From Callorhinchus milii (lineage: Eukaryota): a DNA stretch of 64,000 bases. The translations under genes and the position numbers were made by a program. Below the pieces are notes generated by a model. It was given only the letters and a program-made list of their open reading frames with translations, was not told where the DNA came from and did not search any database. The DNA lies in the NCBI RefSeq assembly GCF_018977255.1, contig NW_024704742.1:105154001-105218000 (forward strand), written 5' to 3'. This document shows, piece after piece, positions 37,240-62,171 of this stretch (its first letter is position 1; each line of letters begins with the position of its first letter).

Positions 37240-37413
37240 CTTGCACATTTCAGCCTCCAGTTGTTGCTGGATACTGTGATAGCTTTTCTTCAGTTGTTGC
37301 TTATCTTTGATCATCATGGTCAGTCTGTATAAAGGTCCCACATTTAGGTCTTCAGCATGTGTCCTCATTATCCTGCTCAACTGTTCTGTCTGTTGCAGCA
37401 TGCATGCCCAGGA
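37240..37413 (-). CDS. FER: FER coding exon 2 (174 nt)
   Basis: [61 protein letters not shown] acceptor, AAG|GTATTT donor, phase 0/0. Confidence 0.97.
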
Positions 37414-37655
37414 CTGGAGGCAAGAAGAGACAAAACAGTCCCAAAAGATCAGAAATAATCTTTCAGTGTTCATCCAAATATTTAGTTTATCAAATCAAAG
37501 GTTCTTAGTTAACATTTTCATAATTTGCTAACAGTACCATTGGAATTTCTATTTAACTGATACATTAATAAAAACATTATCTCAAAAATTTAAGAGAATA
37601 TATATTTTGATAACTGGCTATTTTTAACATTACACTCAGAAAAGGCTGTATTTAC

Positions 37656-37865
37656 CTTGGGGACATTGGTAATACAATCCACTGGTGAGGAGGTATCATG
37701 CTTCTCCACTTGCTGATAAATGTTCTGCAGCAAAGATGCATATTCTTTGTCACTTTTAACTCGTAGGACCATAAACTTCTTTAATGTCTCCAGAAGTTTA
37801 AGCTCAGATTCTTGCAGTTTTAGCAAAGCCTCGTGGGAATTCGGAAGATCACTTCCAAACCCCAT
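37656..37865 (-). CDS. FER: FER tyrosine kinase, first coding exon (FCH/F-BAR N-terminus); whole exon 37938-37656 including 73 nt of 5'UTR
   Basis: Translates to [70 protein letters not shown], matching the vertebrate FER N-terminus (MGFGSDLKNSHEAVLKLQ...). Strong Kozak CAACATGG; acceptor tttacttttcAG before 37938; donor AAG|GTAAAT. Confidence 0.97.
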
Positions 37866-39093
37866 GTTGAATAAGGCACTGTAGTATCCACAATGTTAAT
37901 GACAGTTCAGCACACACTGGTTACAGCATTTCCCTTCTCTGAAAAGTAAAGAAAAAATAACATTTGTGCTGTCATCATTTTATTTAAAACATATAGGTTT
38001 GCATAGATTCAAGAAACCTTAAGTCACATCAATGCCTGCTTAACATCTTGGTTTTTAGTTTGGAAATTACTCTTACACTTCAACTTTGACTAATTTATTT
38101 TAAAAATCAAATTATAAGTTAACCAACATACTCAGCAATATAGTCTAATACCATGAATGTTGTTCAACTCTCTAACATACATTCAAGAAATGTTTCGACA
38201 TGATAAAATGCTGTTTCAAATACAGGAATTTCTTCACTTCAGAAGGTTGTTAAGAGTTTGGAATTCAATTCAATTTGGATTTAGAGGCAGTAGTAGTTTC
38301 ATAGACTGGATAGGCCAAATGGCTTCCTTCTGTGTCAAAAAAATTCAACTACAAATACAGTTACACCACTTTACAGAAAATTCTTCTGGGCTCCACTTGC
38401 CAAATCAGCATAATGCTCAGTCGTTCTGAGGAGGTCGTGTTCCCATACATCTTTTCTCAAATAAATAATCCTTTATGTAGCTCTGACAATGTTCAAATAT
38501 CTCAAAGTGCCTCGCATGAATTGTCACCAAATGTAGTGACTTCATATTTGTAAGCAAAACAGCAATTTGCCCACAACAAATAGCTATGGAAGATTGTTGG
38601 TCAGGATACCAGGAAACCTCTTCTCTCTTTTCGAACAGTGTCATGTGATATTCAATGTCAACCTGAACAGACGGATGGGAATTTTTAATATGTCATCCAA
38701 ATGACAGCATCTCCAACAAGTCGGCATTACCTCAGGATTACATTGGTGTCAGCCTAGATTGAGTTCAAACTCCTGATCTGTGATTTAAACCCTCAACCGT
38801 CTGACCCAGAGGGGAGATTTCTACCAACTGAACCAGGCTGAGCTTAGTGAAAGCAAGAAGATACTGTTTTAGACAAAGCAAAAAATATATCTTTACTCTT
38901 TTACATACTGCTACAAATATGGCTGTCAACAAAGTGATAACGATGAGACTGATAATAGAAATATCCGTTCACCCAAGTCATGGCTCACCAAGATTGTGAA
39001 GTCAGTGTGGACGTACTGCATTTTTTTTTAAAAAGTCTTTTTTTTAAAAAAAAGGAGTTGCCTGATAACCATATTGTTTTCTAAACCACAAAG

Positions 39094-39125
39094 GGTGTGT
39101 GTGTGTGTGTGTGTGGGGGGGGGGG
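39094..39125. repeat. (GT)n microsatellite followed by poly-G
   Basis: Seen directly. Confidence 0.9.
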
Positions 39126-42100
39126 AAGAGAAGACTGATTCAATCCCCATATTGCAGATGGTATGGATTCCACTATATAAAATTAGAGAGAGTACAAGAC
39201 TAGAATAGAAACAATTACTTACTTATTTCTTACGGAAACAATAAATCATCTTGGTGAAAAACGGAAGGGGTCATTCTTCATTACCATTTTTACCAGAGTT
39301 CCAATTACTCAGTGAAAGCAATGAGATAACATATTACTTTAATCTAAGCAAAAAAGTTCTCTCTCCTTTTTTAAATAATGCTACTAATATGTCTGGCACC
39401 TAATTAATAGTCAGAAACGCAAGATTGCAAAACTTATCGACAAACCTGCAAATTGTAATGCAAGCTTAAGGACCATGAAAGTTTTCTTTAACCCACAAAA
39501 ATAAAAACTGAGGGGAGAAGTTTAGGAGCTATTTTTGTGTAAGAAAAATTGAGGGGAAAATTGTTCCTCCACAAACAAAGAATAAATTGGGATTATTTTG
39601 TAACACTGAAAAAAACAGGCCAAACATTTGCAGCCTGAATTATAACATGAATTTGGGGTTATAAACCTGTGGCACTGCAGACCCCAATCACTACGCATGA
39701 TGCAGTTGACCTGTCTTTTGTATTAAACAGCCCCACCATATTGGGAATTTACTTATCCTAACCACCGTGGAGAGGGGGAGCGCCTGGGTGGGGGGGAGCA
39801 GGCGAGAAGGGAGAGAGTGTGAGTTAGAGAGGTGAGAAAGGAGGTGCAGGAGCGGGTACACGCGATGGGGAGAGAGAGAGAGAAAAACAAGAGAGAAGTT
39901 GTGAGGGCAGTTCTTCCTGGTTCACTGTCAGGATAGACGAGCAGAGTCTCCCTTGGCCATTGAAGGGAACCGAGGTGTGACACCGAGTGACGTGCAGTTT
40001 CCTCACAGAAAGCTCCCACTTTCCCCAGTGAGAATCTCCTCTATGTCCTTCATCCCCCCTTCCCCACCCTACCTCAACGTGCGATCTCCTGACCCTGACT
40101 GTTCCCTTTGCCCAGCGAACACTGGCTTGCTTCATGTCACCCCACCCCATCTGCCCCACCAACACCATTTTACTCCTCACTCTCTGGAGCTCCAGTCCCA
40201 GTCTCTCCGACTCGCTCCCTCCATCCTCTCTTTCAAGGCACATCAAGACCTAACTATTTGACCTTGTTTTCGGTCATCTTTTCCCCTCCCCACCTCCCTC
40301 AGCTCTCACCCAAAGCTCAGGTGCCCGGCCAACAATGTTGTGCACTTTGAAGCGTCCTTCCAACGTGAAAAGAGTGCTATGTAAATGTTATTATGGTCCT
40401 GGAAGGGAAACAAAAATATTGCTTGTGCAGCCTGCGGATGTTTCTCAAATAGGGCATCCGGCCCGCAATAGCCAAAATGTTGGACCACCCAGTTCTCGCC
40501 TAATACCTCCTGATCATTTTAACAAAAGTTTATTCCCAAACTTAGTTTCTTTAAAGAAACTATTTCCTCATAAATTAGGTCCTCCTAATTCACTGATTTA
40601 TTCTTCTCTATATCCTTTCCAATAGATCCTTTTTGATGGTTATATTTGCCAGAGAGGGCTGACAGCCTTAACAACATAAAGCAAAATCCTTTTGTGCCAG
40701 TCTCCACTGCTGTGGACTCCATGGTAAAGGTAAAAAACTGATCATAAGATCATGGCTTGATATTATAAAACAATTAATTCCACGATCATCCGTTTTTTTC
40801 CATTCAATTATGGAGTTCTGCAGTGTTAAAGTATTAAAGTTAAAGTATTCGCCTCACAAGTGAGAAGATCTGGGCAGAGCGAAACTTTCGGCAAATTTCC
40901 TTACTCCACACTCCTCCATTAACCTAGCAGTAAGTTGGAACTTTGTTGTTAGTCGACTGGTGAATCACTTTCCGGGGGTAATAATCAGTTAAAAAAAAGC
41001 TTTTTTCTTTCAAACTTGCTTCTCTCTATGGTTAATTTTACTGTTTATTTTCAAGTGCTGCAGGCCTCTTCCCACAGTCCTTATAATATGTACTGTCCTT
41101 CTAATAATTGCGACACTACTGTGCATAATTGGCTGCCATGTTTCACCCACAAATATACAGTCAATTCACTTTACAGTATATTTCGTGAAGTGTTTTGAGA
41201 CATCTAGAAGGCGTGAAAAGCGCCATATCAAAATGCAAGGAGTATTATTAATATCTCTATAAACCCTCAGGACAGAATCTCCTTTATTCACACCATTTCA
41301 TTTTAGGTGTCAGCCTAGTTCAGTTGCAAGCACCCTCATCTCAAGATCCGAAGGGTTTAAACCCACAACAGGATTTGAGTTGTATTTCAGGCTGGTAGTC
41401 CAATGCAGTTCTGGAGCAAACACTGCAATGGAAATATGCCATCCTTTGTATGAGACATTAAACCAAGCTACTGTCAGCGTGTTAGGTGATTATTAAAGAT
41501 CTTAGGACTCTATTCAAAAAGAAGTGTTTCTCTTAATGTCCTGGTCAAACATCTTCAAAATAACAATTGCATTGCTATTGAACCTTTCACATTGCAAGGT
41601 TGTCTCAAAGAGCTTCCCACAGCTGTAATTAACTGTGGATAAAATTGGGGCTACAGCTGAACAATAAATTGCTCATTCACTTCATTGTTGGGATAAAAAG
41701 CAGGAGTGAATTATTGAAATGTGATCAGATCAGAAGTGAATTACAAAAAAATTGTTTCAGTTAATTTTGGTATGTTTATGCTTGTTAGCTAATGTCAAGC
41801 TGACTTGCAGAATTTTGAGTATAAAATTATTAAAATGTTGCAAAAGAAACGCCCACTCTCATCAGCGTTTCCAAACCAAGAGAACCTTTGTCTGGTGCCT
41901 ATGAACTGTGATAGTCATCCCAGTGACAAAATACATGTAACCATAATATTGCCTATTGTTAGCCTGCTTATTCAATTAATGCAACACTATACATCTTTTT
42001 GCCTCAGTAATTAAATAAGCTATTAAACATACAATGCAAGTGACGTTGGTTCCTTTGTTTTCAGATTCCCGACTCTATACTTTGGCAATCTAGAACAGCT

Positions 42101-45100
42101 ATTCTATTCTGGCTGCACTTTATTGACAGGCGAAGTAGTGTGGTTATTCTCTGGCCGACTTGCAGGAAAAGCAGAGCGGTTAATTCCATTCTAGTCATCC
42201 CTTTGAAGCTAACAGGACCTTGCTTGCTGTGGGTCCGAAATGGGTCCTAGCTGGACAAGTACTAGGAAGTTTGCCAGACAGTGCTTTCAATAGAAAGCTA
42301 TGCAGTTTTAGCTGATTAAACTCCAGCAGTTCCTCAACGCATACTCCAGGGTTTCCAATCCTTGGCTTTTGCCAGTCTGTGCCTGATATTCTCCAGAATT
42401 ATGCAAGCAAAAAGTGTCCTTCCGGGGAAAGAGTGCGCATGCCGTTCCAAATATGAATTTTCATGGAAGCATAGTGATGAATTTCCACATGTCAGACACC
42501 CAGTTGACCAAACAATAAATTGGCTGTCATGTTTGCCTATAACAAGTCATTAAACTTTATTTCAACTCTCTATGAAGCACTTTAAGAAGTTACATTGAAA
42601 GGGTTATTTTTATCCAAAGTGGTATACACACCCATGGCTGTTTGTGAGACACTAGTCTGCGCAATTGACTGCTGTATTTCGCCCACAAAATATACAGTAC
42701 TTGACAGTACATTCTGTGAAGCACTTGAGACTCAAAGACGTGATAAGGCATTACATCAAATGCAAGGATTATTATTATTATTATTATTTCAGCGCCTTGG
42801 GACGTCCTCCTGACGTGAAAGGCGCTTTATAAATGGAATCTTGTTGTTGTTGTTGTATTATATCAAAGATAGTGATACAGTAAGTGGGTAGCAAAATCCT
42901 CTCCATCTTTTGGACCCATACTGAATCTTGTCTTACCAAGCTTCTATTGTGCCTCTAGGAACATAAGAATTAGGAGCTGGAGTAGGCCATTCGGCCCCTC
43001 GAGCCTGCCCCGCCATTCAATAAGATCATGGCTGATCTTCTCACCTAACTCCATCTGCCCGCTTTATCCCCATAATCCTTAATGCCTCTGTTCTCAGATC
43101 CTCGACTTAGTCCTAGATGAGAGCTAACTTTCTTCAGTAGATTGGCTCCCATCAGCGCCTCCACATCACCGTCCATGGTTGCACACTGCACCTTACTAAG
43201 CCAGTCAGGAACCTTGGCATCTTGTTTGACCCTCAACTATACTTTCTACCCACATCCATGCCATGACCCGCTCTGCCTTCCCCACATCGCCCAGCTCCAC
43301 CACTGTCTCACCGCAGGCCACCAAAACCCTCATATATGCATTTATAACATTGAGGCTTGACTAAGCAAAGTCCCTGCTTGTCGGCCTCCCCAACTCCTCC
43401 CTCCATAGGCTGCAGATCATCCAGAACTCTGCAGCCCGTGTCCTCTCCCGCCTCACCAATGGCAGACGGGCTTTCTGCCACTCTGCTCACGCCCTCTGAA
43501 ACTCTAATCCGCAGTCCCTCCATCTCGCCCCCCTCCCTTGCCTCCTTCAAGACTCATCTCCACTCCTCTTTGACCATGCTTTCAATTACCCTACTATCAA
43601 TTCCTCCCCTGCTCGCCACCCTCCCCAATGCCGACCCCCAGCTCAGGTCTGAAACAGTGACTGTCCACTGCCCTGGATCCTAGGTCAGGCTGTCTCATTA
43701 ACTCTCTTTGTGTGCGCTGCTTAGAAGTGCATATTGAGCATGTTTTACAAGCATTACTGTGAATTGGAGTGACTTTGTATTTGTAGGTAAACTCGGCAGC
43801 ATAATTGCACACAGCAATGTCTCAAACAGCTATGAAATGAATGACCCAATTTTATTTGGATAAAGTGACTTCAGTCATCATTTAAAAGCATACGTGAAAC
43901 CGTGTAGTTTCTTTTCCATGGTTGCAGTAAACAATCGCATTATGCTTTCAACAACAACTTGCACTTATATAGCATCCTTTACACAGAGTAGTCTCTGAAC
44001 CTCAAGGTTGGGTTAAATTTGTCCCAGGTTCAGCCACATTCTTCAATCTCTCTCATTCTCTTATCTGGCCACATAGTCATATGGGTTCTCCCTCCTTTAT
44101 GGAACAAACGTTTCAATCTTATTTGCATTCATTCTATTTTGCTATGATTTGAACTTACTTTCCCCAGCTATCCTTCGTACCCCACATCCGGTCCCTGGCC
44201 AGGGTGGCTTTCCTCCACCTATGCCACATTGCTCGCTTCCGTCCATAACTCACTCCAAATGCTGCCAAAAAGTCTCGTGCACACCTTCATCACCACCCGC
44301 ATTACCTATTCAAACGTCCTCCTCACCAGTCTCCTCTGCTTTACTATCTCTCCAACCTGCTCTCTCCCCTACTCTACTGCCTGCTGCCTCTGCTCCACTG
44401 GCTCCAGCCTCCTCCTTGTCCCCCAGACACTCCGCCCCACCATCGCCAGCTGTTCCTTCAGCCACTACGCCCTGACACTGTAGAACACTCTCCCTCAATC
44501 CCTTCGCCTTGGCCCCTCTCTCCCCACTTTCAGGTCGTGCTTGAAGAACTTCCTCTTCAACCAAGCCTGCGGTCACCTTCCCCCTGGCTCGGAAACGGGC
44601 TCTGCCGGCGCTCCGAGACGCCATCCAGCATGAAGGCTGCTATATAAATGCAAGTTGATGTTTCTGTAAGGAGCTGATCACTTTGAAAATCTTTTGATAT
44701 AAATTGAAAATTGATTTGATAAATTCTATAAACATACATAAACTGGGAAAATGGCTGATAAATTTAGAATCACATAGTTAATGGATTTCGCCTTTGAAAT
44801 ACTAATTTTAACATGTTAGAAAAGAACCATATAGAATACAACTTGCCAAGTACCATACACAATCTGGTCATGCAATACAAAATTTAAATTTATATTTTGT
44901 TTTTCACAATGGGAGAACGTCCGAAGGCATTTGATATCCTCCCAACACCCCAAGAGCACTTCAATGGCATTGTACGTTTTGAAAGATGATAAAAGTCTGA
45001 AGCTTGAAATCAAGTTACTTTCTAGTCTCTTAAGTTTGCCTCTTTGACCATATTAGGAACAGCAGTAGACAAAAAAAATTCAGAGGAATTCAAACATCTC

Positions 45101-48100
45101 GACTGTGACAATGACTCCAAATTCATAATTAGTCATGCATTCATAAAACCTCAGCATCTGCTGCTCTGTGATCGACAGGGCAGATCAAATGCATTTTAAA
45201 CACTGATGTGGATCCAGTGCTGATTTCTTTCCTTCAACTAAAAAAATGTATATTGTGAGCTGAATATTAGAATTAATACACAGAAACAAAGATGGCTATG
45301 CAATGTATTCATAGTTTGTAAAATGTAAAGCTGCATATTGCCGAAACACAAGTTAATTGATAGTCTATGGTAGAGTACAAATTTATCCTTGGAAAATCAT
45401 TCTGTATTTAATTTGGTACACTTTAGCTGCTAAAAAGTGATCACAGAAACTTTGTCACTTATTAAATAGAATATTTCCTCACATTATTTGTAATCATAAA
45501 TAAAATTAGATGTGCAAAATCAATATTATAAACCAAGAATAGATGAAAGAAAACACGCAATAGTTTATTTTTCATGAGCGGTTTGATCTGAATAAGTCGC
45601 AAGTGAAATTAATTAAGTTATTAGCAACACCAGGGATAAAGATACTATCTCCACAGCTTCTTACTGCGTATGGTTTATAAAATACATTAGGTAAGTAACT
45701 AAACCAATAAAATTTAGCTTCATTTTGAATGAAAAGTAAACTGATGCATGGACGAATTCTAGTGACATTCTTGTGAAATGACTTCCTCCACAAACAGTGT
45801 GCACTTTGTTTTCGATGGTGGCTTGCCCACAAAATATGAGACTTAATAGCTTTGTTTGATACCGATTAAAGAACTAGTATTGATAAAAGATCAGTAAAAT
45901 TTCATTGAGGTCTACGTCTTACTAGACCCATTAAGCAAAAAAAATTCTAAAGTACTTATAATTATGGCGAATAATTTTAGTCTTCCTCAATTTGGTCACA
46001 CATATTCTACTTAATACTTCCTCTGTGTTTTCCCAGAAAATACCGCTAACTCAAATTTTTATAGTCCCGTAGTCTGATCTTTTACTTCTTCATTCTTCTG
46101 TTGGGTTTCCACTTAACTCTCAAGAGGGCTTCCTGTTTTCATTTCCCTTCCATTCATACAAAAGATTATCACAGACTATCATTCTCTATTTCTGTATCCT
46201 TCTTAGAAACTTTTTTTCCTCATTCAACTTCTATAATTTAATTTAGAGATTAACATTCTCATAAAACAGAAAAGAATCAGAGTTGAGGAGTTGGAGAGCA
46301 AATACTCACTGCTTGTAGTCAAGCAAGAAGTGTGCAACAGCAACCGAAAATAATGAAAAAGCCAGTGAACAAAGTGGTTACGAACATTACCTGCATTATC
46401 TGATAAAATACCAGAACAGTTAGATTAAGGCTTTTGCAGCAGCACACCCACAGCATGATTTGAGTCACAGTTAAAAAACACATGCTGCCACAATCGAAAG
46501 ATTAAGTGAGATAAGCAACCAAACTTCGAAGCCACAAGAGCAGCACGGATTCAGGCGACTGTCACAGAGATCAAAGTAACCTTCACAAGCAAAATTTAAT
46601 TCCAATCAATTCCCCCGACTGACACACTGAGGCTATTGCCTACCCTTAGAACGCTTCCAACTCTACAATCTCCAGCAGGCAAAAACAATTTCAGGTCGGC
46701 TGACTGAAAATCTCACTATTTGTGCGTGGATTTAGACAACAGAAATAAGAATTACATTGAATTTTACACCACCAAACCAGGCCATTTGGCCCAACTAGTC
46801 TTTACCAGTGTTTATACTCAACATGAACCTCCATCCATTCTAATTCCTCCTCCCTAGCCTTTCGCTATACCAGTCTGTTTCTTTTTTATTTATTTCAAAC
46901 TTTTCAAACTCAACTGTACATGCAGAACAAAAAAAAGTTTGGATTATGTTTTAACGAGGAAAAAACAGTTTTAAAGTCAGTTGTTTATTAACTTTGCAAC
47001 TTCTCCCAATCTCCACGTGAGTTAAGATTTAGTGTTAAAAATGTGTTCTTTCTTGAGCTAACTGATTCAGCAGAGACAGAAGTCGTTCCTCTCACTTGCG
47101 AGGCGAGCGTGCTAACCACTAAGATACAGAACTCCAAGTTAGGAAAGGTATGGGGGGGGAAACAGTCAGGGTTCTTGCCCCTGATTACTATCCAGTGACT
47201 CTGAATTGGGTTTGATGACTATCCAACCAGCCCTCTGCAGTCACAAAGCGTGCCAACATTCACTATCAAGATTCACACATGCTGGCCATCTGGGCAACAT
47301 ACCAGAGGGTGCCAACAAAACAATACCTCCACTGAAAGGAAATATGGGTCAAATGTATTCAGGGAGTGGAAGCAAAAGAGAATTGGAGCAGAAAACATAG
47401 AAAAGAAAATTCAAAATTTCCAAATACAATTGGATGCCAATTTATTTCCTTTATTTTTTTTTCCCAAATAGCAACAAATGTCAGCTTTAAATAACAGTCA
47501 AGCACACAGAGATATTGATCAACTGTAGGGCAAAAAATGAACTGTGTACAAGAGCAAGAAAGACACCTCACATAAGTCAATAAGTTCCTAGTAGGGAGTT
47601 AATTAAAAATGGACATCAATTAATAAGATTGGCCCCAAAGGATTGAATGTTGTGAACATCCCAATCTCGCATTCAAACCCAAGAAATCTACCATTCAAAC
47701 CTACCACGTTATATCAGAATTCCATTGTGTATACCAATTTGGTGAGGAAATCAATTGAAGTATATAATAAGAGCAATGAGAAAATGGCTGTTTTCTAGGT
47801 TGTCAAATCATTACGGGAAATGTCACTGAAAGTGTGTGGCTTACAGAGAGTGACATCAGCAGCAACCTGGTGACACAGAAGGTGTGTTTTTTTAAATTGA
47901 GCATAGTATGTCAGCTAACTTAGTGTTCTGCTCCACAGTGATCCTGTGCAAAAGGTGAAGCCACACAAAACCAGGGAGCTTTGTTACAGGGTTGCTCCGT
48001 GTTTGTACTCTGGGGTGGCTGGACTAGCCTTTTTCAGTCCTGTGCAGATCTTTGTTCCTTTGTAAAGAATATTGGACCTCAGGATTGTTAACTTTTATTG

Positions 48101-48554
48101 AATTTCATTTTTTAAAAATCCTTTTTGCCATTGCTCGTGGAATTAAGCTTAATCATCCAAAATTCCAATTAGACTTGCTTATGCTCCCTAAAACAAATAG
48201 AGCATTTTAAATCAGATCAAGATGTAATGTACTGAGACCTTCTCACAACTGTAAGTTACCAGAATTAAGTTTCCAACACTGCACCCCCAAATCAATTTTA
48301 AACAAAACGTATGAACGCATGAGGAGTTTTAATTTATACTCTGTAAATACTTTCTTATTTTAAATGTAATAAACTAACATGCTCATGTCAAGTTTCAGAT
48401 CCCAGGGATGGATAAATTGCACTTCAAGGTTCCTTCTCTTTCTTCCCCCACCCCCATAAAAAGGTACAAATCATATTATTTTTATTTTGCTTCCTTTTGA
48501 CTCCACCCCGTGTGTGGAGTGATATATAATTGGAGGTTGGTTGTTGTTGGCCAA

Positions 48555-48596
48555 ATACAAGTATGACCAGAAAGATACAAGTATGACCAGAAAGAT
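48555..48596. repeat. 20-bp perfect tandem duplication (atacaagtatgaccagaaag x2)
   Basis: Seen directly. Confidence 0.9.
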
Positions 48597-48809
48597 GGGC
48601 TGAAAACTAATTCTTCAGTCAAATGCACTCTAAACATTCAACGTGAAGTTGTATCTAGCAACTTTGGGATGTCCTCCCGACGTGAAAGGCGCTCTATAAT
48701 TGTAATTTTGCTGCTGTTGTTGTAGCAACTCAACAGAGCTGATACCAAGAAGTCACAAACACTGAAGTTCAAGAAAGGCATGCATCTCAACTGGTCTGTG
48801 CATAAAATT

Positions 48810-49175
48810 AATAATAATAATAATGGTTGGATTTGATATAGCACCTTATCACGTCTTCGAGACGTCTCAAAGCACATCACAGAATATAATGTGGAGTGAA
48901 CTGACTGTATATTTTGTGGGCAAAGCCCGGCAGCCAGTTGCTCACAGCAGTGTCCCACAAATTGAGTGACCAAGTTATTCTTTTTTTACAAAAAGGGATT
49001 ATTACCCCCAGAAAAGCCACCTGCCAATTGACTAACAATGGGGCTCCTACTTTCTGCTCTGTAAACAGAGGCATGTGACGCGAGGAAACTTGCTAACGTT
49101 TCACCCTGTCCAGGAATCACACCAGGGTCCTGTCACTTGCAAGGCGAGTGCTCTAACCAATACGCTACAGGAATC
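48810..49175 (-). mobile_element. tRNA-headed SINE, longer subfamily
   Basis: Head, extra internal segment, core and tail all recognisable. Confidence 0.85.
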
Positions 49176-51359
49176 CACTGCTCTAACCAAAAAGGTACAG
49201 AACTCCAAAGTATTACAACCATTTTCAAAGTTACCTTGAAAAGTTATATTTCCCAACTGGTCAACAGAAAATAAAACAAAAGGGTAATCTGAAATTTGGC
49301 CACATTCAAATAAAGTTTAAAAAACACATATCAACAACTGTATTTAAGAACCATCTGGCTTGTAAAGCCATACTACTTGTTGCTGAAATTGCAGTTCTCA
49401 GAACTCCACCTTTTCACTGTCACAGGTAGAAGCCAAGTACTTGGAATCAGCTTTTCTTGCATCAAATGGAATTAAATATCAAAACAGTTGTTTTTTTAAA
49501 AAAGACTGAACTTGTATAGTATTGCATGGAATGAACATCCCAAAATACTTTTGAAAATCATTACAGACATTTGTGGGACATTGCTGTGTACAAATTGGCT
49601 GCTGCATGCATTTACATGGTCTCTGTGCTTAACACTGAATCATGTGAAGCACTCAGAGACATTTTAATGATGTGATAAAGAGCTATATCAAATGCAAGAA
49701 TTATAGCTGATTCAATGTTCTTAACACTGTAGAACATGCTTCATTGCTACATAGATTTGCTTATAAGGTTGGGGTGTGAAGTCGAATATTTACTTTCAAA
49801 ATCCAAAATGTGGGCAGAAAGCCAGCTGGCAAGCCACTTTAAAAAGCCGGCAAGCATTCCACATGCTATAAAATATCTAATAATGCATTTTCAGTTGTGA
49901 CATTAACAACACTACAAGTGCTGTCTGAAACTTGCTCAGTGTGAAAGTGAAAACTGCCAAATCTGATTATGATTTTGGAAGATAGACTCCTTAAGTAATA
50001 CAATGAATAGCCTTCTCATATACCAAATAGCTTGTACACCTGGCTGCATAATAAAAAGCAATAAAATCACAAGTGTCATACGTGATTAGATTAGCTGATA
50101 TTATTACAAAATGCTCTTTTGTCACATATGGGTCAATGACTTGTTCTCGATTTCTACATTTACAACAACAACAAGATTCCATTTATAGAGCGCCTTTCAC
50201 GTCGGGAGGACGTCCCAAGGCGCTGAAAGGCGCTTTACATTCTGTAGTAATAAACTGCATAGATAACCAACATTCAAACAATCCCTATGTTCAACACAAT
50301 TAAAAAGCTATGTCAATTACATTAAAAAAAATTACAGCTGTATTTTTTGAACAATGATCTTTTCAATCAACCTTTTAAACATTTCATCTACTTTGACCAA
50401 TTGACATATCAAGTTTATATCATACAACACCACGAGGACAATTCTACTCAACTAAACTGCACATTTTAGGAAGATGTGTATAGGAAGACCTATATACATT
50501 GTAAAATAGAATAGCAACAAAAATGTTAACTTAGTCACAATAATAATTCTTGCATTTGATATAGTGCCTTATCACAACTTCGAGACATATTGAATTATTG
50601 ACCCACTGCATTGCAACATTGAAAATTAAAAGTAATTGCAATATTTTCACAAAACTCAAGTAAAATGCATTTTTTGTTTAAAAAAATCATTTCTTTAAAA
50701 AGTGCCACAGCAGGAACTAATGTATAAAAAGTATTTTTTTTCTTTTAAACAGAAAAATGGCAGTAGTCAAGTTTGTATTCCAGCTTTTTCTAAATTACTT
50801 CACACTAACACACATGCCCATTTATTAGGAAGGAACTGAATCATGCACTAAGTATTTCTTTCAACACATTCTATGCACCACATAGAAATGTTATCTTTCC
50901 TCCCCCCAATTTAAAGCAAACTGCACAAACAACCCACGTTTAGGGTGGTGCTGGGTACTTGAAACAGAAATTATGAAAATATATAAATGAACATAAAATC
51001 CCAAATTGTAAGTTAAAAATCAATCTGAAATGAAAAATCAGTCAGTAAAGTATGGAAAACTTAGTTTTGAACAGGCAGGTGATAGACCAACTGTTCTACA
51101 CAAACCAATGTACCTCAACAGAAATTTACAGCAGAGAAAAAGGGCATCATTTTGATGTACCCACAAAACACAGTCACTCCACCTTACACAACATCATGTG
51201 TGGCGCTCCGAGACATCCTCCCGTTATAAAGGCACTGCACTAAATCTAAAGGTTACTATTAGAAGTATTATAATGTAATGAAGTGTTTCAAGACCTCAAT
51301 GTTGCCAACAGCTGAGTCTCTGCCATCCCATGACCTGAACTGGCGCCTCCAGGATACCT

Positions 51360-51875
51360 GTACCTGAGCGGCTCCTCTCTGTGGTGTACCTGAGCGACTC
51401 CTCTGTGTTGTGTACCTGAGCGGCTCCTCTGTGTTGTGTACCTGAGCGACTCCTCTGTGTTGTGTACCTGAGCGACTCCTCTGTGTTGTGTACCTGAGCG
51501 ACTCCTCTGTGTTGTGTACCTGAGCGACTCCTCTGTGTTGTGTACCTGAGCGACTCCTCTGTGTTGTGTACCTGAGCGACTCCTCTGTGTTGTGTACCTG
51601 AGCGGCTCCTCTCTGTTGTGTACCTGAGCGGCTCCTCTGTGTTGTGTACCTGAGCGGCTCCTCTGTGTTGTGTACCTGAGCGACTCCTCTCTGTTGTGTA
51701 CCTGAGCGACTCCTCTCTGTTGTGTACCTGAGCGACTCCTCTGTGTTGTGTACCTGAGCGGCTCCTCTGTGTTGTGTACCTGAGCGACTCCTCTGTGTTG
51801 TGTACCTGAGCGACTCCTCTCTGTTGTGTACCTGAGCGACTCCTCTGTGTTGTGTACCTGAGCGGCTCCTCTCTG
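51360..51875. repeat. Minisatellite, 26-bp unit GTACCTGAGCG(A/G)CTCCTCT(G/C)TGTTGT, about 20 copies
   Basis: Unit starts every 26 bp from 51360 to 51854; the last copy is partial. Two dimorphic positions. Confidence 0.98.
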
Positions 51876-52810
51876 CCGTGGCCGAGCGGCCGATGCTGTG
51901 GCTGTTCGCTGCCCTCCCGCCGGCGAGGGTTAGCCCCGGACGGTCAGACTGTGTTGCTCGCTGGCGGGAGAAGCGGTTTCCCTCTGGTTCACCTCGAGGC
52001 TGAGCGGTCGGGGAGGCGCAGACCGGGGGCCTGAGTTACCGCGGACTGGACTACGAGGCGGAAACATTGACAAAACCGCAGGCTTTTAAGTTTCTAATGT
52101 CAGCTCCTTCGACTGCAGCCGTTCCCAGGGAGTGCGCCTGCGCCAGAGCGCGCGAGGACCGCCGGGAGTCGGCGCGATGGCGAACCTGCGCAAGCGCGCT
52201 GAGCCGCTGCTGTGGCCGGGCATTGTCGCCCAGGGCTGGTGGGTTGACGCCCAATCGGCCGTGTGTTTATTGTTACTCCGCGTGAGAGCCGTTTACATTG
52301 CAATTTAAACCTGAGGAACGTGTCTTTTTCTCCCCCTTTGAAGACTTTTTTGTCACACAGTTTAACAATCACTAACTAACCTAAGTCGGGCACTCTGCTC
52401 CCCCGTTGTGGACAACGCGTAACATTGGGCTCCTTTTGGGCTAGTGTTTGGCTGACTTTGGGCTACAAACGTAGTCTGATTTCTGGCCGCCGCGCATGCG
52501 CGCGCTGAGCCCATTGGTTCACCGTCCGCTCGATCTGAGCGCGCGGGGGAGCTCCGATATTGGAAGGGAGCATGCGCATCACCGGCCCGAAATGGCGACC
52601 CGCGGAGCTGCGCTTTGTCAGCGCCACGCCTTGCTGTGTGCGCCTGCGCACGCCGGGCAACCCGGGATTGTAGTCTTTCACAGCTCTGTGCGTGCGCGCG
52701 CGCTGGGCGCATGCGCTTCGCTTGAGCAGTCCCCCGCCACGTGACGTAACCGCATCACGTGCTCGGAACAACATTGCCGCCAAAATGCGGCCGTGAAGGG
52801 ATCCGATGTG
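51876..52810. promoter_or_regulatory. FER: CpG island: probable FER promoter and non-coding exon 1, possibly bidirectional
   Basis: The only strongly CpG-rich block, 14 kb upstream of the FER ATG exon. NRF1 GCGCATGCGC at 52492 and 52707, GCGCCTGCGC variants at ~52134 and ~52640, CACGTG at 52738 and 52756, CCAAT/ATTGG at 52251, 52514 and 52559, YY1-like AAATGGCG at 52590, ZNF143-like GGGATTGTAGT at 52664. Confidence 0.85.
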
Positions 52811-52949
52811 GTTGTGTTCCCGCCTTCTGATAAGACATTAGAACGAGGTCCCGTCTGTCCGTTCTATGTGGAATGAGAAGAGAGTTTCTCACCCGTGTCC
52901 TGACCAACGGTCCCTCCAAAACAAAATTGGGCATTCACTCCAAGGTCCG

Positions 52950-53275
52950 GGAGTCCTGTAGCTCAGTGGTTAGAGCACTCGCTTTGCAAGTGAGAGACCT
53001 GAGTTCAATTCCAGGCAGAGGGCGAAACCTTGGGCAAGTTTCCTTACTCCACACAGAGCCTAATAATAATCCCTCCAAAACCAATAATAAAATTGGTCAT
53101 TTTCAATCCATGACTGTTTGTGGGACATTGCTGTGCGCAATTGGCTGCTGCGTTCGCCCACAAATATACAGTCAATTCACTTTATAGTCTATTCTGTGAA
53201 GCGCTTTGGGATGTCCTCCCGACGTGAAAAGTGTATAATAATAATAATATCCAAATGCAAGGATTATTATTATTA
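52950..53275 (+). mobile_element. Full-length young tRNA(Ala-TGC)-headed SINE
   Basis: Head GGAGTCCTGTAGCTCAGTGGTTAGAGCACTCGCTTTGCAAGTGAGAGACCTGAGTTCAATTCC (A box, TGC anticodon arm, B box); core ctgtttgtgggacattgctgtgcgcaattggctgc; L2-like tail. Confidence 0.93.
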
Positions 53276-54205
53276 AGGTCATTCCCCGCCCCCACTTGGG
53301 TCCAAATCCCTGACTGTCCAGAGCCTTGGAATGTAATTTTGTATTGTGATGTAAAGTTGTTTGTGTGCAAATTGGCTGCCACGTTCACCCACAAAATATA
53401 CAGTTACTCCACAGTATATCTTACAGGGCACTTTGAGACGTCCTCCTGGTGTGACAGGCACTACAGTAATACTTGTATGCCATATCAGTCGGGACCATAA
53501 CATCTAATATGACTTACGTCAAGTTCTTATGTGTGTGCTGCGACGAATCAACACTACATTTCTTGCGATGCAATGCAGTCGGCCGGTAAGTGCACATTCT
53601 TCGAATGGTATAAAATGTAATTTCCCGCAATTCAATGCAGCTGATAAGCATGGGAGTAATGGAGGATATGGGAACAGCATTATGCATCAGGAGATGAAAA
53701 ACATGACTAGTGCAAAGAAATCTAAGTGGTTTTGATAGGAAACTAAACGGGACTTGGATGAATGCACCACTTAGGCGATTATATGATTTATAAAGATAAG
53801 ACTTATGTGAGTTTTACTGTATATCAAATGCAAGGATTAATAATAATAATCCTTGTATTTGATATAGTACTTTTCACATCTTCTAGACGTCTCAAAGAGC
53901 TTCACAGAATATACTATAAAGTGAATTGACTGTATATTTGTGGGAGAAACATTATTATTATTATCTTAGAGGTCATCTTAATTCAGTTGGTGGAATTTCT
54001 GCATCTAGCATAAAAGGTTATGGGTTGAAGCCCTATGTTGGGACTTTCAGCTCACAGTTCGGATGTACATTTCAGTTATATTATAGAGCAGAAGTACTCA
54101 TTGTTGTACGCTTCATCTTTCGGATGAGAATGTTAATCCAAGGTTCTATCCACGTAGTCAGGCGGAGGTTAGTGTTCCAATGGCACGAATTGAAAAGAGA
54201 TCTGT

Positions 54206-54533
54206 AGTCCTGTAGCTCAGTGGTTAGAGCACTCGCTTTGCAAGTGAGAGACCTGAGTTCAATTCCAGGCAGAGGGCGAAACCTTGGGCAAGTTTCCTTA
54301 CTCCACACAGAGCCTAATAATAATCCCTCCAAAACCCAAAACAATAATAAATTGGTCATTTTCAATCTACGACTGTTTGTGGGACATTGCTGTGCGCAAT
54401 TGGCTGCCGCGTTCGCCCACAAATATACAGTCAATTCACTTTACAGTGTCTTCTGTGAAGCGCTTTGGGACGTCCTCCTGACGTGAAAAGCGCTATATCA
54501 AATGCAAGTATTATTATTATTAATATTATTATT
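54206..54533 (+). mobile_element. Full-length young SINE nested in an older Deu-type SINE (~53975-54790)
   Basis: Same family. The upstream flank has the Deu-domain motif ctttcggatgaga..gttaa.cc.agg. Confidence 0.9.
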
Positions 54534-55146
54534 ATCTTTTCCCAGTGCTCTACTCCCAGATAAATTGGCTTTGTGACTGTTTGTGGGATATTGGTATGTG
54601 CAAAATGGCTCCTGTATTTGCCTACAAATATGCAGTCATATAATAGCCAAGATAAATTGGTGATGGTATTAATAATATGTTTTGCCCACAAAATATACGG
54701 TCAATTTGATTACAATATATTCTGTGAAGTGCTTTGAGATGTCTTGAAGATGTGATGAGGCGCAATATCAAATCCAACGATTATTATTATTACATGGATG
54801 TAAGTGACCTTGTAGAATTGCTGACAACTAAACATGAACATTTTATAGATGTTATAACATTGGATTTAGAAAGGAATCAAATATCCAAGGTCATAAGAAG
54901 GTCTTAGACAAGTAGACATTCTTAAATAATTAATAGTAATCCTTGCATTTGATATAAATGCAATTTGTTGTTGTTGACATTCGGCCTTATTCGGAAGCCA
55001 GTGGAGTCTGGCAAGGATGGGGGTGAAAGGTCACGGAGCCTGGTACGGGAGAGGACACAAGCTGCAGAGTTCTGGATGATCTGCAGCTTATGGAGGGAGG
55101 AGTTGGGGAGGCTGATAAGCAGGGAGTTTGCATAGTCAAGTCTGGA

Positions 55147-56032
55147 GAGACAACTTTCTTCAGCTCAATGTGTGCAAAACTGAGGCCCTCCTGATTGGCT
55201 CACATCAGCGCCTCCGCACCTCAGGCGCTGACACCATCAGCATCCAAGGCTGCACTCTCCACCTCTCAAAGTCAGTCAGGAACCTCGGCGTTTTGTTCGA
55301 CCCTGAGCTGTCCTTTCTCCCTCATATCCGCACCACAACTGGCACCGCCTTCCATCACCTCCGGAACATCGCCAGACTACGACACTACCTCACCCCTCAC
55401 GCTGCTGAAACCCTGGTTCACGCCTTTGTCACCTCAAGGCTGGACTATGGGAACTCTCTCCTCGCGGCCTTCCCCTCCCTCCACAAGCTGCAGGTCATTC
55501 AGAACTCTGCAGCTCGTGTACTGTCCCGCACCAGGCTTCGGGACCACATCACTCCCACCCTCGCTCGCCTCCACTGGCTCCCCATCCCCCAGAGGATCGA
55601 ATTCAAGATCCTCATCCTCACCTACAAGGCCATTCACGGCCTCGCTCCCTCCTACCTCTCCGACCTACTATCCCCCTATCTACCTGCCCGTACCCTCCGT
55701 TCCTCTGGCTCCGGTCTGCTCCACATCCCCGCCCCAACCGCCCTACCATCGGTGGCCGGGCCTTCAGCTTCTCAGCCCCCAGGCTCTGGAACCCTATCCC
55801 CCAGTGCCTTCGCCGCCTCCTCCCTTTCCTCCTTCAAGGCCGGTCTCAAAACCTTTCTCTTCAACCGTGCCTTCAGCTCCCCTCTCGATTCTCTACCCCC
55901 TCCTCGCTCCTGCCCTCCCCTCACCCTGACCATTTTCCGCCTGCTTGGATCCCAACCCAACTGTCCAGCGCCTTGGGACGTCCTCCCGACGTGAAAGACG
56001 CTCTATAAATGAAAGCTTGTTGTTGTTGTTGT
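55147..56032 (+). mobile_element. L2-clade LINE, 5'-truncated
   Basis: ORF with NFLQLNVCKTE, RNLGVLFD, SRLDYGN and LHWLPIPQRIEFK; 3' tail ending (TTG)n. Confidence 0.95.
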
Positions 56033-57799
56033 GTATGTTATGAATGTGTGTTTGAGGAGTTCAGCGGTCTGCGGTGTGGCGAAGTCATAACATAACATGT
56101 AGGAGCAGGAGTAGGCCATTCGGCCCTTCGAGCCTGCCCCGCCATTCAATCATGGCTGATCTTCTAATCTAACTGCAGCTAATAACCTGATCCTGCCTAA
56201 TCCCCATATCCCTTAAACTCTTTTGCAATAAGAAATCTATCTATCTCAGTCTTGAAGTCGGGTGAAGTTGGGATGCGGAGATGGAGGAAGGTAGAGTGGG
56301 TCATGGCACAGATGTGCGGTAGAAAAGATAGTTGAGGGTCAAACGAGATGCCAAGGTTCTGACTAGCTTAGTAAGGTGGGATGTGCATCCTTGGATGGTG
56401 ATACTGTCAGCCCCTGAGGTGCACACGAAAAGGAAGCTGGCCATATTAGGCTAGAAACTGAAAGTGTACCGCACTTCTGGTAACTGCAGGTCTACAGCTG
56501 CGCTATACAATCACTCCCGTTCTAACAATGCACATTATAAAAAGTTTGTCCTGTAGTTTGTAACGGAGGAGACAATCATTGTTAAATGTACCAAGCCCTT
56601 TGGTGCTTTCAGAACTTAATCAGCCATGAAAGATAAACTCTGTTAATATTACTGCTTTTTCTGCATTCCATTCTGCTATGAAAGAGCACCCCTTCAGTTA
56701 GTAGTGGAGATCCCCTATAATTAAAATATTTGGGGGAAAAAATTCATCCTCTCACCCTTTTTTGTTTTTAACATGGAATCTCAACTCAATCCTTGGTAAA
56801 CTTAGAAAACATCTTTTTCAACCTCCAGAAAGAGTGTACAATGAATTTTTAATCCATTTTTATGTGGAGGGGGCATAATGTCTAAAGTGCTATGTCAAAT
56901 GCAAGAATTATAATGTGATGGAAAGGCATTTTTAAGGTTGAAGCAGAAATTGTCCAATTCACTGGTGGAATACATCTACTGCTGCCTCCTTCCAAGTACC
57001 AATTCACCAACCCTGGTTCAATTTGCTTACATGTCATTGAAAAGTATGAATTCCTGCTCTTTCATAAATAATCCTTTGCTTGAGAGGCCAGTTCCTACTC
57101 CAGTAGTTAGCCCACAAGTGCCCTTCACGTGGGTAAGCATTTCGGAGCACACTTAGGCATAGGGAATAGATTTAGAGGTTGAACATCAAGTTCTGTCCAG
57201 TACGTCATGTCAAAGGTACGATTCAGTCTACTGATTTTAATCATTGTTAAGTAAGTAACATTACATAACTAAATAATAAGTTTGTAGGACCTTGTCACGA
57301 AAATGGCTGCCACAATTGCCTAAAAAAATGCAAACTACACCTGAAAGCAATTACCTGTAAACTGCTTTAAGATGTATCATTGTGATAAGGTGCTATAAAA
57401 ATGCAAGTTCTTTCTGACTGACTGTACTCTATGTGCCTGCCTAATGTCACTGAAATATTTTACAAACCTTTTTGATCAAGGGTACATCAATGCTGGAAAG
57501 TAAATATTGAAATAATAGTTACAAGCGGCTCAAGCAGCTGGAACGTACTCATTATACTCATTGACTTATCTCAAAATAGACTCATTTACCTTCAAAATGA
57601 AATCACAGCTCATGGCGATCACATCTGAAGGGGGGAGAATTCACTTATCGGCTATTTTTTCACCCACAAAGTCAATTCATGTTACAGTATATTCTGTGAA
57701 GCGCTTTGAGACGTCTAGAAGACGTGAAACGCGCTATATCAAATGCAAGGATTATTATTATTATCACCCAGTGATTCTCAAACTGTGAAGTGATAAAAT

Positions 57800-58625
57800 G
57801 CTGAAAGAGTGATACAATTTTAAAAGATAGCCAATATGGGTTTATGAAGGGAGATCCTGCCAATTTAATTTATTGATTTATTTGACTGTGTGATAAAGGA
57901 GCTTGGAGTCCTGTAGCTCAGTGGTTAGAGCACTCGCTTTGCAAGTGAGAGACCTGAGTTCAATTCCAGGCAGAGGGCGAAACCTTGGGCAAGTTTCCTT
58001 ACTCCACACAGAGCCTAATAATAATCCCTCTAACAAAACAATAATAAATTTGTCATTTTCAATCTACGACTGTTTGTGGGACATTGCTGTGCACAATTGG
58101 CTGCCGCGTTCGCCCACAAATATACAGTCAATTCACTTTACAGTGTGTTCTGTGAAGCACTTTGGGACGTCCTCCCGACGTGAAAAGCGTTATATCAAAT
58201 GCAAGGATTATTATTGTTATTATTGATAAGGGTAAGGCAGTGCATGTTGTATATCTGGATTTCAGTAAGGCCTTTGATACAATTGCTCATGAAAGGCTGG
58301 TACTGAAAATAAAGAAAGCGTGAATCAGTGGAAGTATCTTGCAACAGATATGTAATTGGTTGACCGATAGAACCCAGAAAGAGGTGGTACAGGGAATGTC
58401 ATCAGGCGGGGAGAATGTTACCAGTGGAGTTCCACAGGGTCTGTTTTGGGACCTCTTTTATTTAACATCTTCATAAACCACCTGGAATTAGGAGTCACAA
58501 GCACAGTGGCTAAATTTGCAGATGACACAAAGCTAATGAAGGTGGTAGACTTCGAAGATTAACAGACTAGGTTACAGGAGGACTTGAACATTCTTGGGAA
58601 TTGGGCAGATCGATGGCAGATGAAT
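57800..58625 (+). mobile_element. CR1 LINE RT fragment, decayed and interrupted by a SINE
   Basis: YLDFSKAFD, SGVPQG.VLGPLLF and KFADDTKL motifs readable across frameshifts. Confidence 0.88.
57905..58222 (+). mobile_element. Full-length young SINE inserted into a CR1 RT fragment
   Basis: Family match. Removing it restores CR1 reading VIKELDKGKAVHVVYLDFSKAFD. Confidence 0.92.
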
Positions 58626-58629
58626 GATG

Positions 58630-58690
58630 AAGGTAATGGACTGCTATTCATTGTGTTGTGCATATGTGGGTTCAAATCCCATCCTTTTCG
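58630..58690 (+). pseudogene. tRNA-Ser(GCT) pseudogene fragment lacking the 5' ~20 nt
   Basis: aaggtaatggactgctattcattgtgttgtgcatatgtgggttcaaatcccatccttttcg aligns with vertebrate tRNA-Ser-GCT (AAGGCGATGGACTGCTAATCCATTGTGCTCTGCACGCGTGGGTTCGAATCCCATCCTCGTCG); many differences are CpG transitions. Confidence 0.8.
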
Positions 58691-59448
58691 CATTGCCTAA
58701 TATCGGTTCAATGAGGGATTGGCAGCATTCCTACTCAACTGTAGAAAATCTATCAGGGGTCTGTACTGCACTGTGGCCCTTCCTGTTCCTTGTATTCACT
58801 GAATAACTAAATTCACAGACTCAGTGAAAGTTAAATGTGCAGGTGACACCAAGTTGGGGAAATTGTGGAATAAAAAGAGGTAACAAAGAGAGCTTGACTG
58901 AGTGATAATAAAATCCTAGTATTTGAAATATCTCCTTAACACATTGTCAGAACATCTCAAAGCACAGGATTTACTGTTAAGTGTAACAACTGTGTATTTG
59001 TCAGCAATTGCAGCAGCTAATTTGCAAACAGCAATTTCACACAAACGGCCATGACGAATATGATCAATTTTATCTGAGACATTACTTGTCATTACACTTG
59101 GAGAAACTCCCTTTTTTCAAATTCCCTGAAGTACTTTGAGACATCTTCCAGACATGAATGGCGCTAACCCAAATTCAAGGATTATAACAATAATAATAAT
59201 ATACAGTATCATGGGATTTTTAACAGCTGCTTGAACTGTTGGCAAGATCTCAATTTAACATCTCATCCAAAAGACAATGCAGCATTTCTCTAGCACTGCT
59301 GTGGAGCGTCAGCCTAGACTATGAGATCAAAGTCTGGATGTGGGGCTTGAACCCACAAACATTCTTGTAAATCTTCTTTCCAATTTTTTTTATTTGCCAT
59401 TGTCATTAAAAATAAGCAGTGATAAGGTTCTTTACAAGTTTGGCTTAA

Positions 59449-59610
59449 GGGACTGAGATGGTACAATGGAGGAACACTACCCTTTCACCTCTGGGATCTG
59501 GTTTGGAATCTGGCCCAAATTGATGGAATAAAAGGTTTTTCTCTGCCAGCCAGAAAGGGCTAAGTAAAATTAGTTTTGGCAGTCACAACCCAGTTCCTAA
59601 TGATCATGAA
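59449..59610 (+). mobile_element. LF-SINE-like 5' fragment
   Basis: gggactg..atgg...cctttcacctctggg..ctgg.tt..aatc..gccca...gtaaaattagtt...gtcaca.cccagttccta is colinear with the recalled LF-SINE head (CCTTTCACCTCTAGG...GTGAAATGAGTT...CCAGTTCCTA). Confidence 0.6.
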
Positions 59611-60139
59611 TCCACAGCAAAACAGTGCCCAGTAATTTAGCACAAATTAACACTAAGTTGTCAATCTCAATCAGAAAGACTACAAAGATGCCCAGTATGG
59701 GAATGAAAATGTTATGATGATGCAACAGGAATTTTGCTTCTGAGGTTGATATTAAGTTACAAATAAAGTAGAATAAAGGAAGCTTTATACTTCCTGCTCC
59801 CAATTGCTCCCACCAGGGCTGGAGGCCTGTGCGTTTGTGCATGCGCAATTAAGTGCAATGCTCTGATAACTGTTAGTTGTTTTAATGTTATTAATGAACC
59901 AGTTATGCAGTGTCTTTTTAATAACTTCAAATGGACTGCCAAGAAGTATTAAAGGACCATTTTTTGAGCAGAGCATGAATTGATTTGCATTTTCTGCATT
60001 TTTTACGTCCAGCGCCCTGGGACGTCTTTCCGACGTGAAAGTGTCATTTGTTGTTGCGTTTATTACTACAGCAAGGTAAATAAGTAAATATGTATCCTGC
60101 CAAAGCACGTTTTACAACAAAGTCGAAATACTCAGGGGA

Positions 60140-60476
60140 AATAATAATAATAGTAATAATAATAATAATCCTTGCATTTTGATATAGCGCTTTTCACGTC
60201 GGGAGGACGTCCCAAAGCGCTTCACAGAACACACTGTAAAGTGAATTGACTGTATATTTGTGGGTGAACGCGGCAGCCAATTGCTCACAGCAATGTCCCA
60301 CAGACAGTCGTAGATTGAAAATGACCAATTTATTATTGTTTTTGGTTTTGGAGGGATTATTATTAGGATCTGTGTGGAGTAAGGAAACTTGCCCAAGGTT
60401 TCGCCCTCTGCCTGGAATTGAACTGAGGTCTCTCGCTTGCAAAGCGAGTGCTCTAACCACTGAGCTACAGGATTCC
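60140..60476 (-). mobile_element. Full-length young SINE
   Basis: Family match on the minus strand. Confidence 0.93.
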
Positions 60477-61034
60477 AGGACTTGTGTCTAAATGTCATTT
60501 ATTTTAATCTTCCCTTCTACCCCTCTTTAGCCAGATTGCATACCTGCATGGGCAAAGTCAGGATTGAGTCTGGCTTTAATGCCAAATCCCTCTAGTTAAG
60601 TAACTGCTGACACTCTGCTGACTGTGGCCACTTGGGTAAGGTACTCGAGAACACACAGAGAACTGTACCCCAGGAGAAGGAAATGAGAGTTGAAATGCTT
60701 TCAGAAGAGGAGAGAAAATCTTTGTGGGTTTATTTGCATAAAAACATTTGCATAAAAATGTTTTGTTTTAAGTTACCTGTTTTACTTCTAATACTGTTTC
60801 TCTCACATGGACCTAGTTTAAAAGCAAAGGCTGATGTTTAAGAGCCTGTGTGTCAAATCTGGGGCAACTATGGAAAAGAGAGAGCACCAGAGTTCTGAGG
60901 AAAGAGCTGCAACTTTTTTTAAAATATACAGTATATATACATACCAGATTTTCAACTAAAACTGCACAGATACTCAATATTCTAAATTTCTTATTATCCT
61001 GGCCTCATCCAGTTCTGAGTGACTGACTGCATTA

Positions 61035-61222
61035 AAAATAATAATAATAATTTGGTCACTCTACCCATGACTGTTTGTGGGACACTGCTGTGTGCAATTG
61101 GCTGCCACGTTTTGCCCACAAAATATAGTCAATTCACTTTACAGTGTGTTCTGTGAAGCGCTTTGGGACGTCCTCCCGACGTGAAAAGCGCTATATCAAA
61201 TGCAAGGATTATTATTATTATT
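61035..61222 (+). mobile_element. 5'-truncated SINE; similar partial copies at ~3220, 5280, 10000, 18690, 20272, 24900, 26555, 36960, 40810 and 42635
   Basis: Core plus tail agcgctttgggacgtcctcccgacgtgaaaagcgctatatcaaatgcaagg(att)n. Confidence 0.85.
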
Positions 61223-62171
61223 CTGTGAAGTGCTTAGAGACGTCTCGAAGACCTGCAATATCAAGGATTATTATTATTATCTCCTCAAGGTTATTTCAGT
61301 AGATGGCTGCAGTGTGACTGCTTCATGCTCATGTGAAACAAACTAGGTTTTTCGAAATGGAACCTTTTTGGCAAATTGCCACAGCAACGGCACCTAAACC
61401 TGGGTTTTAATCTGGATCTGACACATGCTATGTCTGTCCTTGAGGTACACGAAGCTCACTAAATTACAGCTCCAGGAAAATGACTTCCTGCAGCATAAGC
61501 AGATTTCATCTGTAGGAAGCCAGTGGCATGATTTCATTGATGAGTCATTGCAGTATCCTCCAGCCTGCATCATTGAATTTGTTTAACAGTATTCCTTTAC
61601 TGTGCTGGAGAAATCTGCAATAGAAGCACTCAGAGAGAATAATGGTATGTGGAGCTATCAAAAATAAACCTACATAGGGTATAAATATTGAGTGACTCAA
61701 TATCACCATTTGATCCTGAAGCAACAGGAGCAAATCTGATTCCAAAGTGACAATTTACTGTCGGATTTGAGTCAACTCTTTGTGATGGTCTCAGACTCTG
61801 GTTTCTGATCCAGGAGTTTTGCATTACTCCAAGACGATGTTGATAAGAGATCTAAAAAACCTGGCTCAACAGCAGGGCTTTGAAGAGTACAATTTTTCCC
61901 ACTTGGCTCCTTGCTAGCCAAAACCCTGTCAGATAGAAGAATGGTTCTAATTGGAATAAAACAGGAAACTTGCCCGACAGTGCTCACAAAGGCAAGCGAT
62001 TCAGTGTTAGCTACGTAAGCTCAAGCAGAACTCCGCAGTCTCCAAGTCTTCACTCCTGCCAACCTGTGTCAAATACTCCAGAATTAATTAAGCAAGATGT
62101 GTTCTGGGGAGAAAGTGCCTACTCCATTCTCGAAATATGAGAAATTTTCATGTGTAGATAGTATGCATATA

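Follow-up and report, generated by a model that had tools for sequence, protein, structure and literature searches.

We consider it likely that a 20-unit minisatellite upstream of the FER gene of Callorhinchus milii is a mostly neutral array reiterating the splice donor of the gene's last non-coding exon, in which a donor among units 1 to 3 does the work and the rest are largely silent. The array is on the minus strand of the window, ie the whole 64-kb stretch of DNA that was analysed; the first coding exon of FER follows 13.4 kb downstream, and the intron that would contain most of the array is 13.9 kb long. All positions given below are those of the window.

The minisatellite, its host gene and the CpG island

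The array was delimited with Tandem Repeats Finder and by pattern search. The program reported a period of 26, 19.8 copies, 96% matches and no indels at 51359-51872, with a score of 937, compared to 84 for the runner-up array in the window. On the minus strand, 20 cores of 23 nt run from 51875 to 51359 with 3-nt spacers between them, giving units of 26 nt; they are of minisatellite size and lie head to tail, as in the class of minisatellites that reiterate a splice junction. CAG/GT (the slash marks the junction of exon and intron) with 18 exon-side bases is present in 20/20 units, and the last exonic bases of these donors fall at 51858 minus multiples of 26, down to 51364. The donor reads CAG/GTACAC in units 1 to 19 and CAG/GTACAG in unit 20, and an extra CAG/GTATCC is found 6 nt past the unit-20 donor, at 51358. 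The end of the array (51352..51366, minus strand), where these last two sites are located, is likely the ancestral intron start. No ATG occurs on the minus strand from 52067 to 51331, and the array contains no stop triplet in any frame.

Two variant positions generate four unit types, represented by 10, 4, 3 and 3 of the 20 units in mixed order, and the spacer after unit 19 carries a private change. The initial annotation, made from the sequence, had described about 20 copies of a 26-nt unit, each with a CAG/GT and none with an ATG, finishing in CAG/GTACAG/GTATCC, and all of this was confirmed. Its variant code of two positions was also found, interspersed as claimed, but the private spacer change was missing from that description. 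The first and last units share one type and the inner units are mostly of derived type, which points to growth from a single junction. We propose that a tandem duplication at the edge of the CpG island would have copied the terminal part of the last non-coding exon together with its donor, and that the array would have grown from that one junction by slippage or unequal exchange.

When the four unit patterns were searched on both strands, no occurrence was found in the 64-kb window outside the array, and a search of a genome index returned no look-alike stretch in other genomes. Three open frames pass through the array; a coding role for them was rejected, as no ATG opens any of the three. A 122-residue reading of the upstream sequence and the first units gave 11 matches, at 25-49% identity, among 1.84 billion protein representatives. 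A junction-spanning or orthologous peptide was sought among those 11, and the three matches inspected were unrelated repeats.

The host gene was identified from its coding exons, eight of which map in order in the window on the minus strand, with boundaries fixed for the first four. The first coding exon (37656..37938, 283 nt) includes 73 nt of 5'UTR and the start codon at 37865, and its acceptor receives the upstream exon. Its product is 100% identical to a Callorhinchus milii kinase over 61 aa (87% of the query) and 80-87% identical to named shark and ray FER proteins; human FES is a weaker match (E 1.4e-9). Judged by sequence comparison, the coding exons are those of the FER orthologue and not of FES. 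The second coding exon (37240..37413, minus strand) has 174 nt, and its joint to the first was seen in two of the sequencing runs described below, X1 and X2, and not in X5 or X11. The protein matches and the transcript contigs together bear out the earlier assignment of the gene to FER and the use of the acceptor at 37938.

The ratio of observed to expected CpG was 0.92-1.17 in 500-nt windows starting at 51751-52501 and 0.40-0.65 in those starting at 51001-51501. Because the ratio drops between these two sets, the array begins at the edge of a CpG island, as had been claimed. The island (51751..53000, no strand assigned) is likely the FER promoter. It contains motifs that we take to be CCAAT, NRF1-like, ZNF143-like and E-box elements, and no TATA match. 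An Rfam scan of 50000-64000 returned no family besides four near-identical tRNA-like matches (RF00005) at 52956-53018, 54210-54272, 57911-57973 and 60408-60470. Each forms the head of a copy of a single young family of interspersed repeats, and the copies cluster upstream of the promoter. Fragments of a LINE-like reverse transcriptase are present at about 55119-55991 and 62740-63927.

Transcript contigs and the working donor

Of the thirteen sequencing runs listed as matches, none was on record as RNA, and four (X1, X2, X5 and X11) were aligned. X1, X2 and X5 were classed as RNA by automated guess, and X1 and X2 contain the spliced joint 37413-37656. Contigs of the runs were aligned to 37100-51352 only, stopping just short of the array. 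Record 1 of X1 is a contig of 951 nt with a depth of 113.5, covering 37237-37413 and 37656-37942. A further 281 letters correspond to exon 5 together with what is left of exon 4, so the arithmetic of this record is sound. The match continues for exactly 4 letters past the acceptor at 37938, and the last 206 letters match nothing in 37100-51352. Among the 15 joints listed (787 more exist) there was none from 37938 into the intron.

From the shape of this contig it follows that the upstream partner ends in TCAG, that the base preceding these letters is not T, that it supplies 210 unbranched letters, and that it is not an exon within 37943-51352. There are 642 upstream GT sites in the window, of which 26 give an overlap of exactly 4 letters, and 20 of the 26 are array units. 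The remaining six, out of 622 sites outside the array, are at 52311, 52999, 54253, 56187, 57954 and 63380; three of them sit in the tRNA-like repeat heads. Direct joins from 52381, 51993 and 53029 give an overlap of 2 letters and a join from 51358 gives 3, so that none of these four can be the direct partner in X1. The amplified piece is therefore probably the working donor of a FER 5'UTR exon, placed by the 4-letter overlap and by length. The array lies beyond the aligned stretch, and the place of the 206 unread letters is thus a deduction from those two quantities. X1 is the one run of the three RNA-like ones that is informative on the donor (the X5 contig stops at 37915), and its animal may carry an allele different from that of the window. 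The initial annotation held that the junction of exon 1 and its intron had itself been amplified; the array donors do predict the overlap seen in X1, but the label 'exon 1' is uncertain.

The fate of such transcripts in assembly was simulated with a 31-letter graph, in which the cleaning model is a crude stand-in for a real assembler. The exon start used, 52067, was picked from the 210 letters, so that recovery of this length is not an independent match. When one donor was used at a time, units 1 to 3 (3/21 donors) gave at least 210 unbranched letters and the other 18 gave 30 to 56. Eight mixtures were also simulated. An even ladder and two mixtures dominated by the last donor gave at most 50 letters at all five levels of cleaning. 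Mixtures led by unit 1 reached 210 once minor edges were cleaned away, and under the harshest cleaning so did series over the first units that fell as 60/30/10 or by halves. Since the even ladder and the last donor never give 210 letters, X1 excludes a ladder as the predominant outcome. It sets no limit on rarer use of the later units, because the cleaning of an assembly hides minor forms.

The donor of unit 1 (51852..51860, minus strand; last exonic base 51858) is likely the working one, as judged by the contig overlap, the simulation and precedent, although units 2 (51832) and 3 (51806) fit the X1 contig equally well. On the same modelling, neither the unit-20 donor nor 51358 is the dominant donor in X1. 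The question raised at the outset, which unit is joined to 37938, is thus narrowed to the first three units as the dominant donor; the far units, or even use of all, do not fit X1. The suggestion that 5'UTR length varies by multiples of 26 nt, to a maximum of about 500 nt, was not supported, at most 50 unbranched letters being simulated for an even ladder or a dominant last donor compared to the 210 observed.

Donor strength was estimated, crudely, as the energy of the duplex with U1. Array donors gave -7.1 to -7.7 kcal/mol, and the range over four genuine FER donors was -4.3 to -6.8; the values for 52311, 52381 and 51993 were -5.6, -6.6 and -7.0. RNA structure as the selector of the donor was rejected. 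The fold of the array region was no better than that of shuffled sequences (z 0.48), and the predicted accessibility of the array donors was 0.43-0.65 throughout, with no gradient.

The 210 letters can be placed in two ways. The simpler is a single first exon at 51858..52067 (minus strand), its length taken from X1 and its placement inferred. It misfits a strict first-donor rule, since the donor at 51993 lies upstream of unit 1, pairs equally well with U1 and would be skipped; its predicted accessibility is 0.34, compared to 0.64 for unit 1. The other placement, made on motifs and length, has a 107-nt first exon (52487-52381) joined to an internal 103-nt exon (51858..51960, minus strand) behind an acceptor-like site at 51961. 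Here the start adjoins the downstream side of the cluster of CCAAT and NRF1-like motifs and 51993 is intronic. Since this arrangement agrees with the motif cluster and leaves no skipped donor to be explained, the reiterated donor may belong to a second non-coding exon instead of exon 1. The strong donor-like site at 52381 and the acceptor-like site at 51961 could define a first intron of 420 nt inside the CpG island. An upstream frame of 14 codons, beginning at 52425, stops exactly at the 52381 site.

Precedents and alternative explanations

Reiterated donors have been described in other genes, and the FER array is probably a real example of this known class, which includes human F7 and the amphioxus 'mirage' minisatellites. 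The 37-bp VNTR in intron 7 of human F7 has a first unit that spans the exon-intron boundary, and the most upstream donor is used (Borensztajn et al. 2006, PMC1557585). In both genes copies of the donor recur in the intron; use of the first copy is shown by experiment in F7 and is likely, by deduction, in FER. The F7 array has 5-9 units behind a coding exon, compared to 20 of 26 nt behind a non-coding exon in FER, so that use of a later unit in FER would not shift the frame. PMC1557585 also describes IFI6 (6-16), with 25 pseudo-sites, and CBS intron 13, with 15-20 units, in each of which two sites are used besides the authentic donor, and the LMNB2 and PDGF minisatellites, in which the authentic donor alone is used. 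As described there, these four resemble FER in having 10-26 units with a reiterated donor, and the first one to three donors are used, as is likely in FER; they differ in unit length and sequence and in following internal exons.

The 25-bp VNTR of ABCA7 intron 18 starts at the exon 18 donor, and retention of one unit has been seen (De Roeck et al. 2018, PMC5954066). Its period is near-identical to that of FER, the reference has 23.7 copies, and the units contain the donor and differ slightly from one another. According to that paper its context is coding, unlike that of FER, and retention leads to a frameshift; alleles range from 12 to 427 units, and an effect of length on splicing was shown there. 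The amphioxus 'mirages' (Adh3 and the globins BflGb6 and BflGb9) leave regular splicing undisturbed (PMC3087553). Like the FER array they are tandem duplications of an exon-intron boundary in a non-mammalian chordate, with distinct boundary units. The mirages are lancelet arrays whose units reach 160 bp and are often found at the acceptor, whereas FER is from a cartilaginous fish and its array follows a 5'UTR exon. PMC10078293 added nothing specific to the comparison. Searches of a limited paper collection found neither this locus nor other minisatellites of the class in C. milii, nor a UPF3A VNTR with a splice donor in each repeat unit. With the FER array, a class represented in at least six human genes and in lancelets would gain one more locus.

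On the preferred explanation, the main mRNA would be spliced at unit 1 (or 2 or 3), following the most-upstream-donor rule as in human F7, and the remaining units would be mostly silent pseudo-donors, removed along with the 13.9-kb intron. The array is probably almost neutral, as it brings in neither ATG nor stop and would be spliced out together with the intron; that neutrality is made doubtful by ABCA7, where array length affects nearby splicing (PMC5954066).

The claim that the units form a ladder of competing donors was not borne out by the human cases described in PMC1557585, which use only the first one to three donors. In a weaker form, in which unit 1 is dominant, many later units are measurably used and copy number shifts the mixture of 5'UTRs, it is unlikely. 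In its favour, the donor is identical in all units, pairs with U1 no less well than genuine FER donors do and has a similar predicted accessibility throughout (0.43-0.65), and the resulting isoforms would escape decay, the array being free of ATG and stop. Mixtures falling off from unit 1 could be hidden by the cleaning of the graph, and second or third units are used in IFI6 and CBS (PMC1557585) and in ABCA7 (PMC5954066). However, even use or far-unit use cannot produce the X1 contig in simulation, the pseudo-sites of F7 are silent even at a consensus value of 91 (PMC1557585), and use beyond the third unit does not appear in the published cases compared. A graded series of FER mRNAs with 5'UTRs differing in steps of 26 nt, the mixture being set by allele length and the variant code, is about as improbable. 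If it were true, the locus would be a natural, decay-free test of competition between identical donors and a copy-number dial on a kinase, and 5'UTR length would be under a simple heritable control if use of later donors tracked allele length. As neither start nor stop codons come with the units, junction counts would measure the choice among 20 near-identical donors free of losses to nonsense-mediated decay, and many of the units could be told apart by the variant code.

A working donor outside the array, at 52311 or beyond the window, would make the array a plain intronic minisatellite with unused CAG/GT sites. We regard this as improbable, to just about the same degree as the weaker ladder or a shade more so. 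The 4-letter test is also passed by 52311, and an exon of 210 nt with this donor would have its start at 52520, next to CCAAT and NRF1-like motifs; the test would equally be passed by an exon beyond the window. Nevertheless, only 6/622 GT sites outside the array pass it, compared to 20/20 array donors, the U1 pairing of 52311 (-5.6) is worse than that of the array donors, and the site lies 70 nt behind a better donor, 52381 (-6.6), which the exon would have to skip. The X2 contig also bears on this explanation, in its favour in so far as it shows a partner that does not end in CAG. It is 459 nt long with a depth of 318 and ends at 37240, the donor of the second coding exon, and at 37940. The latter stop lies 2 letters beyond the acceptor and implies a second, abundant partner whose end is not CAG. 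An alternative first exon was the first reading of the stop at 37940; a back-splice is preferred, as it explains both ends. Fifteen single-event models were compared, and the length and both ends are reproduced by one of them alone, a back-splice from exon 3 to exon 2, which needs no outside donor and suggests an abundant 457-nt circular RNA of FER exons 2-3. The corresponding back-joint is absent among the 15 joints listed (787 more exist), and a two-event alternative, another first exon together with a skip to exon 6, would give the same ends. A search for FER circular RNA (circFER), in one paper collection, found none.

It is very improbable that the array is an artefact of assembly or much shorter in real DNA. 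The evidence consists of the assembly and of short-read contigs; against an artefact, the four unit types are interspersed without indels. A contig of X11, a DNA-like run (depth 8), covers 50576-51352 and then continues for 36 further letters before it stops. The numbers predicted past 51352 are 61 for the allele of the window and 36 for a repeated allele lacking the private variant, and a single-unit allele would produce no break. The 36 letters thus match a repeated allele without that variant, although a contig of depth 8 can end for other reasons, and suggest that the X11 array carries a different variant pattern at its end.

Other features of the FER transcript

A minimal upstream frame, Met-Leu-stop, is present at 37929-37921 (minus strand), 64 nt before the FER start codon. 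It sits in the first coding exon and is hence present whichever donor is used. Compared to the joint in X1 and X2, the database model of C. milii FER (P0001) is 9 residues short where the first coding exon ends, which suggests that the annotation uses an earlier donor. The fourth coding exon ends at 28143, and the X1 contig stops exactly at that donor, which implies a branch at this position. A 243-aa FER isoform of the whale shark (P0003) departs from the main sequence at the same point, and a short, F-BAR-only isoform of FER may be common to cartilaginous fishes.
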